A DNA stretch of 64,000 bases from a virus (IMGVR_UViG_3300047274_000223), one strand, 5' to 3'. Positions 5,111 to 42,837 are shown, counted from the stretch's first letter. Notes: a model not told the origin generated them from the letters alone. Numbers and translations are program-made.

Positions 5111-5858
5111 ACCCCCTGCAGTTGATGCATTGCAAGTCCCTGTTACTCGGGGGCTTGCTTTGCCTGTATTTGAGGCACCTGATTCATCAATCAAGTATCC
5201 AGTTATAAATGTTCCTACACAGGAAGAATTTGATGCAGCCGTAAAAGCAGAGAAAGAAAAGCAGGCAGCGGAAAAAGAAGAGAAGTCTAGAGGTTTGCCA
5301 GATGCTAAGCCACCAGACCTCCCTGCTGCTGTTCAGGCACTCACCCAGACCCCTCCAGTCACCAAGGCAGAGATCCCAGCAGACAATCCTACTATCAACG
5401 TGGCAGGGGTCAAGGTGGACCTCCCAGACCCCTCTCTGGTGGCAACGGCAGGGGCAGTGGCAGTGGTGACGACTGCTTCCACCATGGTCGCAACTACAGC
5501 ATTTAACGCATTAAAGAATGCTGCTGAACCGATCATTAAAGAAGCAACAAAGAAGAAGTTTAAAATTAAGATCAAGCAAGTCAAACCTGTTCTACATTAT
5601 GTCTTAGCAGAAGGGGGACATATTGATATCTTTGAATACTCTGCAGATGGTACTAGACTTGTGGATCAAGTAGAGAACGTGGAGCAATATATTAGAGATC
5701 AAGTTGAGATCAATTCTCTCTATGAACTTGATAACAAGATTATTATTGATGATGTCATAGCAGAGAAATTTACAAAAGAGGGGCAAACGAGGTTTAAGCC
5801 CTTGTTTGCCCCTGCTAAGAAGATCGCTAAGAAATTATCTGCTAAGTTCTCAATCTGA
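4947..5858 (+). CDS. hypothetical Pro-rich protein with one TM segment (start uncertain)
   Basis: 303-codon ORF; VPTQEEFDAAV; hydrophobic LVATAGAVAVVTTAS. Confidence 0.65.
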   Translation: MPNQIPSLPQQQLNQLSNQSSIPQLQSSNLQTLQPLKNQSQTIQRLQGTLIPRLEPPAVDALQVPVTRGLALPVFEAPDSSIKYPVINVPTQEEFDAAVKAEKEKQAAEKEEKSRGLPDAKPPDLPAAVQALTQTPPVTKAEIPADNPTINVAGVKVDLPDPSLVATAGAVAVVTTASTMVATTAFNALKNAAEPIIKEATKKKFKIKIKQVKPVLHYVLAEGGHIDIFEYSADGTRLVDQVENVEQYIRDQVEINSLYELDNKIIIDDVIAEKFTKEGQTRFKPLFAPAKKIAKKLSAKFSI

Positions 5859-5981
5859 AAATTTATCTATAACCCAAGAAAAGATTAATACGGGAAGATA
5901 TACTATCAAGTTGTATAACATGTCAACAAAGATGTTGTCCTTCTCTTCTTTTCTTTTCTCTTTCGCTGGTGCTGAAGTCAT
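5850..5981 (-). CDS. 43-aa small membrane protein
   Basis: Manual translation MTSAPAKEKRKEEKDNIFVDMLYNLIVYLPVLIFSWVIDKFSD; GGGGAG RBS. Confidence 0.55.
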   Translation of the reverse strand: MTSAPAKEKRKEEKDNIFVDMLYNLIVYLPVLIFSWVIDKFSD

Positions 5982-6009
5982 TATAACTCCCCACATAATA
6001 TAGTATATA

Positions 6010-6096
6010 TTAGTTTAGTGTAGCAATATAAAGTTGTGCTTCTTGAAGTCTCCTCTGTTTGAGGATTTGCTGACGGATAACATTCAACCAATTCAT
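6010..6096 (-). CDS. 28-aa peptide resembling the N-terminal part of cyanophage DUF4278-type peptides
   Basis: MNWLNVIRQQILKQRRLQEAQLYIATLN; AAGGAGG RBS; ATGA overlap with upstream ORF. Confidence 0.6.
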   Translation of the reverse strand: MNWLNVIRQQILKQRRLQEAQLYIATLN

Positions 6097-6254
6097 TGTG
6101 TTACCTCCTTGTTATTGTTACAAGGACGATAAGCAACACCACGATATGTATTAGTTGGATGTGCTGGTGCATGTGTTTGTGAATACCAGTGCTGATATTC
6201 TTGCTTTGGTGTTTCAGTATCGTACTTTACACCACGGTAGGTTGCTTGTGACAT
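6093..6254 (-). CDS. DUF4278-family (YRG motif) small protein
   Basis: MSQATYRGVKYD...TNTYRGVAYRP, two YRG motifs; AAGGAG RBS; directly downstream of glutamine aptamers. Confidence 0.8.
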   Translation of the reverse strand: MSQATYRGVKYDTETPKQEYQHWYSQTHAPAHPTNTYRGVAYRPCNNNKEVTQ

Positions 6255-6285
6255 TAGGGTTCTCCTTAAGTGTTAGATTAAAGAG

Positions 6286-6457
6286 CGTTCCTTCAGTCGG
6301 CTTTTGCGTCTATCTTACATTCTTTTCTTGTCATTTGTTTGACCTCCCAGACAATATTATTCTTCTGTTGAAGTGATAGTTCTGGGTGTGTCATCACTCT
6401 ACCAACAATAAATTGTGCTTGGAGACAAGTTAATAAGAGTGCTTCCATAGATGAACG
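6286..6457 (-). ncRNA. glutamine riboswitch aptamer 2 (Downstream-peptide/glnA type) with a 133-nt P2 loop
   Basis: CGTTCA-TCTAT...ATAGA-CGCAAAAG-CCGA-CT-GAAGGAACG. Confidence 0.75.
6293..6448 (-). CDS. 51-aa hypothetical protein nested inside riboswitch aptamer 2
   Basis: MEALLLTCLQAQFIVGRVMTHPELSLQQKNNIVWEVKQMTRKECKIDAKAD; an in-frame upstream ATG at 6490 is also possible. Confidence 0.6.
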   Translation of the reverse strand: MEALLLTCLQAQFIVGRVMTHPELSLQQKNNIVWEVKQMTRKECKIDAKAD

Positions 6458-6460
6458 ATC

Positions 6461-6505
6461 CGTTCCGAGTCGGCTTACTTCCGTCTGCATTATAGCAGAT
6501 GAACG
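6461..6505 (-). ncRNA. glutamine riboswitch aptamer 1 (glnA type)
   Basis: CGTTCA-TCTGC-tataat-GCAGA-CGGAAGTAAG-CCGA-CT-CGGAACG. Confidence 0.8.
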
Positions 6506-6529
6506 TAAAATATATAGTGAAAATCTTTT

Positions 6530-6543
6530 GTAAAATGTGATAC
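6530..6543 (-). promoter_or_regulatory. NtcA binding site (GTA-N8-TAC)
   Basis: GTATCACATTTTAC, about 25-38 nt upstream of aptamer 1, overlapping the expected -35 region. Confidence 0.7.
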
Positions 6544-6547
6544 CAAA

Positions 6548-6718
6548 TTAATGTTTTCTTAGTGTTTGCAAGTATTCTATGACATGCCACCTGATTCCCA
6601 TCAATTCATTGTAGCATTTTTGATCATGTGCTTGTTGTCTTAGATCTGAATCTGGTTTGTAAATACTTTCAATGAATAGGTCTAGACCGTTATTCCATTT
6701 GTCGTCGTTGTTAGTCAC
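6548..6718 (-). CDS. 56-aa hypothetical protein (GTG start)
   Basis: Manual translation MTNNDDKWNNGLDLFIESIYKPDSDLRQQAHDQKCYNELMGIRWHVIEYLQTLRKH. Confidence 0.6.
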   Translation of the reverse strand: MTNNDDKWNNGLDLFIESIYKPDSDLRQQAHDQKCYNELMGIRWHVIEYLQTLRKH

Positions 6719-33316: not shown

Positions 33317-33390
33317 GTCTCAGTAGCTCAGATGGATAGAGCATCTGCCTTCTAAGCAGTTGGTCGGGGGTTCGAGTCCCTCCTGAGACG
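33317..33390 (+). tRNA. tRNA-Arg(TCT)
   Basis: Cloverleaf; anticodon loop CTTCTAA; GTTCGAG T-loop. Confidence 0.92.
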
Positions 33391-33409
33391 CCTTATTGAA
33401 CTATTCGTT

Positions 33410-33655
33410 ATGAAAAAACCTACTGTTATTATGGAGCGGTTTCCTTACCGCTATATTCAAGTTGGAATGCTTGAGATCAATGGCAAACCCGATTGCCGTA
33501 TTCAAAAAGTTGATTCCTACACTGGACGTTACCGAGATATGTATCTCTGTGACAATGAATCTCAAATGCTCCTAGCAATAGAAGACTTTGAGTATACTAA
33601 ATGGTTGGATCCAGACACGGTTCCATGTTATGTAAAAGGAGACGACGATGATTGA
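33410..33655 (+). CDS. conserved cyanophage hypothetical protein
   Basis: ERFPYRYIQVG..NGKPDCRIQK..YRDMYLCDN. Confidence 0.75.
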   Translation: MKKPTVIMERFPYRYIQVGMLEINGKPDCRIQKVDSYTGRYRDMYLCDNESQMLLAIEDFEYTKWLDPDTVPCYVKGDDDD

Positions 33656-33941
33656 CACAGTGAAATATCAATTAGAACGTGCTGAAGATGCACTTCGAAC
33701 AGCAATGAAACTGGGAGCAGAAACAGAAGATCCTTATCTTCTTAAAAATATTGCAGAAGTAATTAATACAATTAGTGGGTGGCAAAATAGTTATAGATAT
33801 AATGTAACTAAATTAACTACAGATGAGGGAATTAAATTTGATTTCACTTCCACTCAATATGGACTAGATGAGCTGCCTTACAGTTATATTTCTAGTGGAG
33901 TAAGAGGTGGAATGAGTGATGATATCATCACTTTCAGTTAG
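33648..33941 (+). CDS. hypothetical protein
   Basis: AAAGGAG RBS, 97 codons. Confidence 0.65.
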   Translation: MIDTVKYQLERAEDALRTAMKLGAETEDPYLLKNIAEVINTISGWQNSYRYNVTKLTTDEGIKFDFTSTQYGLDELPYSYISSGVRGGMSDDIITFS

Positions 33942-34155
33942 TCACGGAAAGACTTAAAAAGTACTGGTGGAGTCAATGACCCAAACTGTCTCGGGATGAC
34001 ATTAAAAGCGCCCTGGTCGGGTGATCCCCCTTCACGAGTTTCCAGTTTCTCTCAAAAACTGGTGGTGCGGATGGGGTAACTCCCGCCGAGATTCCTATTT
34101 ACTCGATAATTAAATAGGTGGCGTGCATGTGCTCGGGAGGATTGACCTCCTCCCA
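33940..34155 (+). ncRNA. large structured cyanophage RNA resembling the manA RNA motif (3' part could be called wcaG-like)
   Basis: Non-coding, GC-rich, multiple hairpins; GTCACGGAAAGAC..CTGGTGGAGTCA..GGTGGTGCGGATGGG..CCCGCC..GGTGGCGTGC recalled from these motifs. Confidence 0.5.
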
Positions 34156-34158
34156 CAA

Positions 34159-34240
34159 GTCGGTATGGCGGAATTGGTAGACGCGCTGGGTTTAGGTTCC
34201 AGTGAAGTAATTCGTGGAGGTTCAAGTCCTCTTACCGACA
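34159..34240 (+). tRNA. tRNA-Leu(TAG)
   Basis: Long variable arm; loop TTTAGGT; GTTCAAG. Confidence 0.9.
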
Positions 34241-34370
34241 TTGGTAGTCCTTAGCGATTAACTAAGTAGACGCCAAATGTAGGTGCCAAAACCGCTCCTC
34301 ATCCCTAGTATTCTGTGGGTGAGTGAATGTAAAGAGTGGGGACATAGGTAAAGTCCCCAACACCTACCAC
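34241..34370 (+). ncRNA. unassigned structured RNA between tRNAs
   Basis: CTTAG/CTAAG, GTAGGTG/CACCTAC, CTCATCC/GGGTGAG and TGGGGAC/GTCCCCA stems. Confidence 0.45.
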
Positions 34371-34373
34371 AAT

Positions 34374-34445
34374 CCTCTGTTAGTCTATTGGTAAAGACGG
34401 GTGGACAACACACATAGAAACTGGGTTCGATTCCCAGCCAGAGGT
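34374..34445 (+). ncRNA. tRNA-like element with atypical anticodon arm (CAA)
   Basis: CCTCTG/CAGAGG acceptor, GTCT/AGAC D arm, CTGGG-TTCGATT-CCCAG T arm; loop GACAACA lacks U33. Confidence 0.6.
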
Positions 34446-34494
34446 AAATAACACCCCCTATGCCTCTCAACGATGCACAAACCTGGGGGTCACT

Positions 34495-34566
34495 GCGGAG
34501 TTAGTTCAGCGGTAGAACGCTATCCTTCCAAGTTAGATGTCGTCGGTTCGATTCCGATACTCCGCT
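34495..34566 (+). tRNA. tRNA-Gly(TCC)
   Basis: Cloverleaf; loop CTTCCAA. Confidence 0.9.
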
Positions 34567-34588
34567 CTTATCCATTGAGGATAAATTT

Positions 34589-34744
34589 ATGTCACTTATT
34601 TCAAAAGCAGACAGAGACTTGGCACTGGAAGCACTTGATTTTTATCTTTTTAATAAACAGCATGATCTCACTGACGAAAAAAGAATGGAACTCAATGCCC
34701 TTGCCAACTGGATCAGATTGGAAAATTTCAAACATGAAAATTAA
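34589..34744 (+). CDS. 51-aa hypothetical protein
   Basis: GAGG RBS; MSLISKADRDLALEALDFY... Confidence 0.65.
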   Translation: MSLISKADRDLALEALDFYLFNKQHDLTDEKRMELNALANWIRLENFKHEN

Positions 34745-34904
34745 TCTATGGTATTGTACTCATATGCAACAGTGGAGATGGACACTTATAGATGATCATC
34801 GCCCTGTAGTTCGTCAAGAAAGTGGTCAACAACCACACTTGCGTGATGCTATGAATGATATTGCTAATACTGTAGAATACATGATGGACTGTAGACAGTC
34901 CTGA
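34734..34904 (+). CDS. 56-aa conserved hypothetical protein
   Basis: MKINLWYCTHMQQWRWTL..QESG..LRDAMNDIANTVEY. Confidence 0.7.
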   Translation: MKINLWYCTHMQQWRWTLIDDHRPVVRQESGQQPHLRDAMNDIANTVEYMMDCRQS

Positions 34905-34910
34905 TTTTAT

Positions 34911-34982
34911 TGCCTAGTAGCTCAGCGGTAGAGCTATCGACTGTTAATCGATTGGTCCCTGGTTCGATCCCAGGCTGGGCAG
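34911..34982 (+). tRNA. tRNA-Asn(GTT)
   Basis: ATCGA-CTGTTAA-TCGAT anticodon arm. Confidence 0.92.
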
Positions 34983-37144: not shown

Positions 37145-37182
37145 AGTGTTAAGGGATGGAAACAAATCTTAACATTCCAACA

Positions 37183-37290
37183 CCCGCTAACCGAGACCTA
37201 TGGGTGTCTAAATTACGTCTCTCATATCCCCGCTGAGGGTGCGGGGAGCATAGTAATAACCACCATTTCCCTGATGGTCTTACTACTCGA
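37183..37290 (+). ncRNA. PhotoRC-II-like RNA motif in psbA leader
   Basis: CCGAGACC..ACGTCTCTCAT..CCCGCtgagggtGCGGG..CCATTTCCCTGATGG upstream of psbA. Confidence 0.7.
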
Positions 37291-42675: not shown

Positions 42676-42763
42676 GGAAAGGTGGTCGAGTGGTTGAAGG
42701 CTCTAGTCTTGAAAACTAGCGATGTGAAAGCATCCGTGGGTTCGAATCCCACCCTTTCCGCCA
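42676..42763 (+). tRNA. tRNA-Ser(TGA), CCA encoded
   Basis: CTAGT-CTTGAAA-ACTAG; long variable arm. Confidence 0.93.
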
Positions 42764-42837
42764 CGGGATGTAGCTCAGTTTGGTAGAGCACTCGCTTTGG
42801 GAGCGAGGGGCCGTAGGTTCGAATCCTATCATCCCGA
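42764..42837 (+). tRNA. tRNA-Pro(TGG)
   Basis: CTCGC-TTTGGGA-GCGAG. Confidence 0.93.

Follow-up and report, generated by a model that had tools for sequence, protein, structure and literature searches.

Does a T4-like cyanomyovirus read the nitrogen status of its host, and if so, what would it do with that information? This question is raised by a viral stretch of 64,000 nucleotides (nt; IMGVR_UViG_3300047274_000223, analysed as a whole and hereafter called the window), whose minus strand carries, between positions 6543 and 6010, a perfect match to the binding motif of the cyanobacterial nitrogen regulator NtcA, a TATATA hexamer, a glutamine riboswitch and two small genes, the first of which encodes a DUF4278 protein. 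A first-pass annotation had listed these elements, all of which were found in place on the minus strand, and had read them as a phage copy of host-style nitrogen control that senses nitrogen to tune glutamine synthetase (GS). The window is DNA of a T4-like cyanomyovirus, and the closest relatives of the region are the Synechococcus phages DSL-LC03, DSL-LC02, S-SRM01, S-CREM1 and S-PM2. Picocyanobacteria are nitrogen-limited in large parts of the ocean and in many lakes, and phage yield varies with the nitrogen status of the host.

The answer that we consider probable, with moderate confidence, is that the locus is a conserved cyanomyovirus cassette in which two small host-derived proteins are placed under the two nitrogen signals of the host, through repression by NtcA and a glutamine ON switch, with the GS node as candidate target. 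The cassette is a variant of a known host circuit: in gifB (IF17) of Synechocystis sp. PCC 6803 an NtcA box at a repressing position likewise precedes a type 1 aptamer that acts as an ON switch by freeing the ribosome-binding site, with a DUF4278 protein encoded downstream (PMC6212724). If the phage cassette works in this manner, T4-like cyanophages would use host machinery to sense 2-oxoglutarate and glutamine and would time two small effector proteins accordingly; the cassette would then be an auxiliary metabolic function under regulation, placed where nitrogen assimilation begins.

The NtcA-type box in related phages and in hosts

The putative box consists of GTA (6543-6541), eight bases and TAC (6532-6530) on the minus strand, and begins 4 nt past the stop codon of an upstream open reading frame (ORF) of 56 amino acids (aa) on the same strand, which ends at 6548 and matches phrog_495. 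Its extended flanks are G and A in the window and mostly T and A in relatives. The number of motif copies was discarded as evidence, as GTA-N8-TAC is not enriched in the window: it occurs 15 times compared to 10.1 expected, a count reached in 10 out of 100 shuffles, and the remaining 14 copies have a coding-like context. A second perfect copy (6217-6230), inside the DUF4278 gene, is made by V-K-Y-D-T codons, is common only to DSL-LC03, the closest relative, and is probably due to chance. With a count near chance level, the motif alone is therefore no evidence, and conservation is the test that matters.

For this purpose viral contigs were scanned with the 3' half of the first aptamer (aptamer 1) as query, which is blind to the box. 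At loci with an ordinary aptamer 1, a perfect box was present in a fixed register in 57 of the 76 distinct upstream regions, while several of the 19 remaining regions had, at this position, a box with one mismatch or with an N6 or N7 spacer. Loci with an ORF inside aptamer 1 had the box in the same register in 14 out of 17 cases, so that altogether 71 of the 93 distinct loci of related phages carry it in register, compared to a background rate of 4e-4 per base in these same loci. In an alignment anchored on a downstream TTG...A.A element, with the box ignored, the arms of the box were 78-89% conserved, compared to 30-74% for the inner positions, and the flanking T and A also exceeded the inner positions. 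Five complete phage genomes have the box-N8-TTG layout at the cassette; other matches, with coding status unchecked, amounted to one to five per strand per genome against zero to two for a control pattern, and being few and scattered they led us to reject this layout as a general phage promoter type. Taken at the level of sequence comparison, the box is more than a chance match.

The same motif accompanies glutamine riboswitches and DUF4278 genes in cyanobacteria, at three different positions. In loci encoding a host protein family with a basic helix fused to DUF4278, which is described in the last section, all 25 out of 25 loci showed a perfect box, N8-10, a -10 element of the TAN3T type, N6 and a glutamine aptamer. 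The distance from box to aptamer was 19-24 nt in the 20 of these loci for which the aptamer start was located by pattern, and it is 24 nt in the window. The host box would be centred near -28 to -30, matching the published position of the gifA repressor site at -28.5 (PMC6316151). In the Cyanobiaceae, the host family of the phages, 27 out of 28 loci with a type 2 riboswitch and a DUF4278 gene have a perfect box that covers the start site and ends 4-7 nt upstream of the aptamer, which generalises the single case of Prochlorococcus MED4 described by Klahn 2018 (PMC6212724). Finally, a genome-wide scan with the pattern CGTTCA-N8-30-ACGGAAGTA gave mostly chance matches in unrelated bacteria and five usable cyanobacterial loci; four of these five gifB/gifA-type loci of other cyanobacteria presented a perfect box 9-19 nt before the glnA aptamer, read as overlapping the -10 element. 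No box was found upstream of three glnA-type aptamers apparently outside cyanobacteria.

Many host DUF4278 promoters also showed a second, imperfect box of the GTATC-N4-TGAAC type about 60 nt before the type 2 aptamer. In the two loci counted (L253 and L256) it was located about 22 nt before the -10 element, the classical activator position, and these promoters may receive a dual NtcA input.

These comparisons bear on whether the palindrome is an NtcA site at all. It might instead be bound by some other factor of host or phage, or serve as a promoter element conserved for its own sake, as the motif is short and common by chance and as the box is followed by a conserved, UP-element-like A-tract. 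We regard this explanation as very unlikely, since the extended consensus TGTA-N8-TACA fits and only the arms are conserved, and since the presence of the motif at cyanobacterial loci of three different layouts, together with its absence at the aptamers apparently outside cyanobacteria, points to a cyanobacterial nitrogen regulator.

Promoter geometry and the predicted sign of NtcA action

Two promoter forms were distinguished among the phages. The window belongs to a short form, shared with DSL-LC02, S-CREM1 and three metagenomic loci, which is devoid of a segment of about 21 nt containing a hairpin and TATAAT, and in which the former -35 element has decayed, while box-N13-TATATA is retained 4-6 nt ahead of the aptamer. 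In the window the box is not followed by a consensus sigma-70 promoter. Its only -10-like hexamer is TATATA (6511-6516, minus strand), 13 nt past the box and 5 nt ahead of C6505, the first paired base of aptamer 1; as the hairpin and TATAAT segment is absent, it is the only plausible -10 element, with the overlapping TATATT (6514-6509, minus strand), which complies with TAN3T, as an alternative reading. With TATATA as -10, the box is predicted to cover the -35 zone, from about -39 to -26 with its centre at about -32.5, in agreement with the overlap that the first-pass annotation had claimed, and this geometry fits that of an NtcA-repressed promoter of the gifA/gifB type. TATATA was also considered as a T4-type late promoter. 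This reading was rejected, as the late motif of the phage, ATAAATA, occurs 20 times, whereas CTATATA does not recur; some relatives have CTAAATA or CATAAATA at the position of TATATA.

Sites for NtcA near -28.5, or over the -10 element or the start site, are reported to repress (PMC6316151, PMC6212724). In the proposed mechanism the host NtcA dimer, active at high 2-oxoglutarate when nitrogen is poor, would bind GTA-N8-TAC and occlude the -35 zone of a weak promoter with TATATA as -10 element, from which the RNA would begin at the first bases of aptamer 1. Since the box would lie over the -35 zone of such a weak promoter, repression is the most likely effect of NtcA, as it is at gifA and gifB and at the host homologues, and the promoter would be free when nitrogen is ample. 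The box being in predicted repressor geometry in the window, and likewise in the host loci, the regulatory reading is well supported.

Three features of the phage promoters weigh against it. First, most related phages have a long form in which the box is followed by 8 nt, TTGACT, 17 nt and a TATAAT-like hexamer located 7-8 nt ahead of the aptamer. This near-consensus sigma-70 promoter between box and aptamer would place the box outside the -35 element, centred near -50.5, a position from which neither activation of the classical kind nor occlusion would be expected. The long form also keeps TATATA 13 nt after the box. With its additional promoter, this form may be expressed largely without regard to NtcA, or NtcA may still modulate it. 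Second, the distance from box to -10 element is 13 nt in the window (15 nt for TATATT), compared to 8-10 nt in hosts. Third, the start predicted from TATATA would trim one base of the P1 stem of the aptamer.

Within the 25 nt preceding aptamer 1, the TATAAT-like -10 element of the long form occupies the loop of a hairpin, in five loci that include L007 and in others, and the stems of this hairpin vary between lineages yet remain complementary. This suggests a role of the hairpin also in transcripts that begin further upstream, perhaps in stabilising their 5' end.

The opposite sign of regulation was considered as well: NtcA might activate, so that infection drains nitrogen, 2-oxoglutarate rises and the cassette is switched on, with the riboswitch restraining translation until glutamine recovers. 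Phage NtcA sites have mostly been interpreted as promoters (PMC3037559, PMC8115048), an activating reading proposed by Sullivan and colleagues in 2010, and the window has no recognisable -35 element, as is the case at NtcA-activated promoters. Moreover, in each of the six short-form loci a TAN3T follows the box at a distance of exactly 22 nt, the canonical activator spacing. However, this TAN3T, the sole one at that distance in the window, is formed by the first bases of the aptamer itself, and a start 6-7 nt further on would remove the conserved 5' strand of P1. The class II layout of NtcA-activated promoters (box near -41.5, about 22 nt to a TAN3T -10 element, no -35 element) was not conserved among the phage loci compared, the long-form majority being without the canonical spacing, and the homologous host genes all show repressor geometry. 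High 2-oxoglutarate and high glutamine would also oppose each other, so that such a gate would rarely open. Activation is therefore considered unlikely, and repression by NtcA is retained as the preferred reading, in which both inputs would signal a nitrogen-replete state, a coherent logic that is also found in hosts.

Predicted tandem glutamine aptamers and expression platform

The leader contains two predicted type 1 (glnA RNA) glutamine aptamers, of which only the first is recognised as such by Rfam. Aptamer 1 (6457-6507, minus strand) matches RF01739 over the full length of the model with 35.9 bits, marginal with respect to the gathering score of 35, and is joined by a GAU linker to aptamer 2. 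The latter is split by an ORF of 156 nt: its 5' half, comprising the P1 strand CGUUC and the 5' strand of P2, is located at 6447-6457, and its 3' half, with the 3' strand of P2, the conserved core and the 3' strand of P1 (GGAACG), at 6286-6313, both on the minus strand. The 5' half was delimited by reading the sequence and by alignment to S-CREM1 and S-PM2; in these two phages the second aptamer is unsplit and can be aligned with both halves, its scores being 33.5 bits (S-CREM1) and 33.3 bits (S-PM2), below the cut-off. That aptamer 1 barely exceeds the Rfam cut-off, and that aptamer 2 is not scorable owing to the nested ORF, is a further reservation with regard to the glutamine input.

The nested ORF (6293-6448, minus strand; 51 codons) is located in the P2 loop of aptamer 2 and matches phrog_504 with an E-value of 1.7e-6. 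Its ATG lies in the P2 strand, while its last codons and TGA stop are supplied by the 3' half of the aptamer. Nested ORFs are also present elsewhere, among others in six loci that include L043 and L121, and the ORF is found inside aptamer 1 in at least 17 other loci. These nested ORFs vary by lineage, including families of 50-67 aa and, in L043 and L121, a protein of 196 aa, but all of them end in codons from the 3' half of the aptamer.

Downstream of the aptamers a predicted expression platform was identified at 6262-6285 (minus strand), in which CUCUUUAA (6285-6278), the arm directly after P1, pairs with UUAAGGAG (6269-6262), which bears the Shine-Dalgarno sequence of the DUF4278 gene. This sequestering hairpin is the predicted minimum-free-energy fold of 6312-6240, and the same hairpin sequence is present in many related loci. 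By analogy with the riboswitches described by Klahn 2018 (PMC6212724), the platform is expected to be a translational ON switch: glutamine, bound by the two aptamers, would open the Shine-Dalgarno hairpin, leading to translation of the DUF4278 gene and, by coupling, of the helix peptide encoded behind it.

A competing 5-bp hairpin, GAACG-GAU-CGUUC (6457-6465, minus strand), appeared in the minimum-free-energy fold of the whole leader. Since the P1 strands of both aptamers are identical, such a hairpin is possible and both tandem and nested folding are conceivable; according to these folding models the two aptamers may be coupled, or nested rather than independent.

The aptamer class differs between phages and hosts, being type 1 in the former and type 2 in the examined host-family loci, all of which were retrieved with the type 2 model (RF01704), type 1 not having been searched in those genomes; marine picocyanobacteria are reported to have type 2 only (Klahn 2018, PMC6212724). 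For this reason the phage leader is not a recent copy of a present-day host leader, although both proteins have host homologues. The idea of a phage copy of host-style nitrogen control holds for the shared layout, seen in all 25 helix-DUF4278 loci of hosts, and for the box kept by most related phages, but not in the sense of a simple copy of a host locus as it exists today, given the different aptamer types and the additional sigma-70 promoter of the long form.

Two small peptides, their host counterpart and the candidate target

The DUF4278 gene (6093-6254, minus strand) encodes 53 aa with two YRG repeats. Its product matches Pfam PF14105 with 25.5 bits, compared to a cut-off of 25.3, and phrog_5049 with an E-value of 1e-12. 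Comparison of the phage DUF4278 profile with the host IF17 profile gave a probability of 96.6% (E 6.5e-10), on the basis of which the 53-aa protein is a homologue of the N-terminal region of IF17. The first-pass annotation was upheld in its assignment of both the riboswitch and DUF4278. The second gene (6010-6096, minus strand) encodes a basic helix peptide of 28 aa. It shares an ATGA overlap with the DUF4278 gene and has its own AAGGAGG, which suggests translational coupling between the two. Compared to phage DSL-LC03 this short ORF shows synonymous differences in 11 codons and non-synonymous differences in 4, a pattern which indicates purifying selection.

The model built from the phage 28-aa peptides matched four host loci, each directly behind a glutamine riboswitch. 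Three of these encode the basic helix, either alone or in fusion with DUF4278, while the weakest match (L274) has two helix repeats and no YRG repeat. For one helix-DUF4278 fusion protein 68 homologues were found in Cyanobium, Synechococcus and 'Prochlorococcaceae', annotated only as DUF4278 or hypothetical. In this host family (57-62 aa) the phage helix profile aligned to residues 1-27 (probability 95.9%, E 5.5e-9) and the phage DUF4278 profile to residues 24-60 (probability 90.6%, E 1.3e-6). Both window peptides also matched phrog_545, the 28-aa peptide at profile positions 1-24 and the 53-aa protein at 23-43, and fused phage forms exist in both orders (S-CREM1 and L088). From these profile matches and fusions it follows that the two phage genes correspond to one host protein, composed of an N-terminal basic helix followed by YRG repeats.

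Both peptides most likely act together on the target of this host protein, and the phage would in this way substitute for short-lived host regulators after host shut-off, keeping a host-style feedback running. As to the nature of that target, the GS or nitrogen-assimilation node would be the best single candidate, argued by analogy and with a chance clearly short of even. DUF4278 constitutes the N-terminal part of IF17, a part that is described as dispensable for GS inactivation and good for stability (PMC6316151), and the cassette appears to resemble IF17 in its architecture, DUF4278 plus basic helix, and in its regulation by the same two inputs, and not by homology of the active part. A more specific version can be proposed as a speculative possibility: a two-part viral GS inactivating factor, in which the DUF4278 and basic helix peptides bind and switch off host GS type I, as a counterpart of IF17 in hosts without IF7/IF17. 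The cassette would then operate as an AND gate, with low 2-oxoglutarate lifting the NtcA repression and high glutamine opening the tandem riboswitch. If this were true, the long search for GS regulators in marine and freshwater picocyanobacteria would end with the host helix-DUF4278 proteins.

Several observations weigh against the GS link. The IF7-type helix domain, which carries the GS-binding arginines (NCBIfam NF052599), matched neither phage peptide at E-values up to 10, compared to 31-89 bits for the C-termini of host IF17 proteins. The 28-aa helix was tried as an IF7-type GS-binding helix with hhalign and rejected as unsupported, with non-significant P values of 0.21 (phage sequences only) and 0.087 (host helices added), although its best local alignment does fall on the IF7-like helix. 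No solved structures of IF7 or IF17 were found. Inhibition of GS would, in addition, restrict glutamine, which is required for nucleotide synthesis. The DUF4278 part of IF17 is moreover reported as unnecessary for GS inactivation (PMC6316151). Of the earlier claim that the phage senses nitrogen to tune GS, the regulatory half is therefore supported by comparison, while the GS half persists as an analogy.

It is accordingly a serious possibility, though still short of an even chance, that the regulation is as described and the target is another nitrogen-related component, such as PII, PipX, NtcA, GOGAT or a transporter, or that the DUF4278 ORF acts mainly through its own translation. Besides the failure of both peptides to match the IF7-type domain, control of GS by inactivating factors is reported to have been ruled out earlier in marine picocyanobacteria, and the role of DUF4278 was called open (PMC6316151). 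The IF7-type domain was also not found in 201 Cyanobiaceae genomes searched, with a positive control in Synechococcus elongatus; the hosts therefore appear to be without canonical IF7/IF17, yet they have kept the module of NtcA, riboswitch and DUF4278. On the other hand, DUF4278 is known so far solely as part of a GS inactivating factor, and IF17 offers a parallel for its pairing with a basic helix and for the two regulatory inputs. Amino-acid conservation and fusions in both orders favour a protein product over a leader peptide. The GS node is retained as the best single candidate target, and the helix-DUF4278 protein is a concrete candidate for post-translational control of GS or nitrogen assimilation in picocyanobacteria without IF7/IF17. 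Direct testing is feasible, as the peptides count only 28 and 53 residues and culturable pairs exist (S-PM2 with WH7803, and S-CREM1 with CB0101).

When compared to known systems, the phage cassette differs from gifB in having two aptamers, the second of which is split by an ORF, and in the predicted position of its box, over the -35 zone instead of over the -10 element. Its DUF4278 protein is also devoid of the IF7-type C-terminal GS-binding domain, and a separate 28-aa helix peptide follows. PMM1846/Yfr6 of Prochlorococcus MED4 and other picocyanobacterial type 2 (Downstream-peptide) loci, which belong to the phages' own host group, share with the phages a short DUF4278 protein, a glutamine riboswitch and a perfect NtcA motif, but they have a single type 2 aptamer, the box over the start site and no helix peptide. 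The host helix-DUF4278 fusions (Cyanobium/Synechococcus-type, e.g., P0121) come close to the window in the homology of both halves and in the compact spacing of box, -10 element and aptamer start. They consist of one gene, with the helix preceding DUF4278, behind a single type 2-like aptamer, whereas the window divides the two parts between coupled genes, with DUF4278 first and tandem type 1 aptamers ahead of it.

Glutamine riboswitches in cyanophages are already known from Rfam and genome papers. The glnA RNA (RF01739) annotated in the S-CREM1 paper (PMC9964418) is the same RNA element of the same cassette; the published annotation ends at the RNA, with no word on NtcA or DUF4278 in the main text. 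The study of T4-like cyanophages by Sullivan et al. 2010 (PMC3037559) shares the idea that NtcA sites let phages read the 2-oxoglutarate status of the host. There such sites are predicted genome-wide by motif and read as activating; its main text draws no connection to the riboswitch cassette and does not contain the word riboswitch, nor do the relevant passages present an analysis of conservation or position. Klahn 2018 described the host trio in a main text without mention of phages (PMC6212724). A literature search returned no paper joining phage, NtcA, riboswitch and DUF4278, nor one on the host helix-DUF4278 family and its promoter. What is new here is that the 28-aa peptide matches the N-terminal helix of this host family.

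Behind the helix-peptide gene, a small hydrophobic ORF of 48 aa (5850-5996, minus strand; 43 aa from the ATG at 5981) gave no family match in Pfam and PHROG profile searches. It is probably the last gene and a possible third member of the unit, which it probably closes together with a terminator-like hairpin (5772-5812, minus strand) that has a 9-bp GC-rich stem, a 15-nt loop and a T-rich tail. This hairpin was read from the sequence, having been missed by an automated terminator scan restricted to loops of 3-8 nt; related phages have a clear terminator immediately after the helix-peptide gene. A short single-helix hydrophobic ORF follows that gene in many related loci, and several of these ORFs end in a YIQWL-type motif.

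Elsewhere in the window three further RNAs were identified, in the order wcaG (34034-34132, 75 bits), abiF (34454-34490, 52 bits) and PhotoRC-II (37170-37261, 77 bits), as well as six tRNA genes, located at 33317-34982 and 42676-42837.

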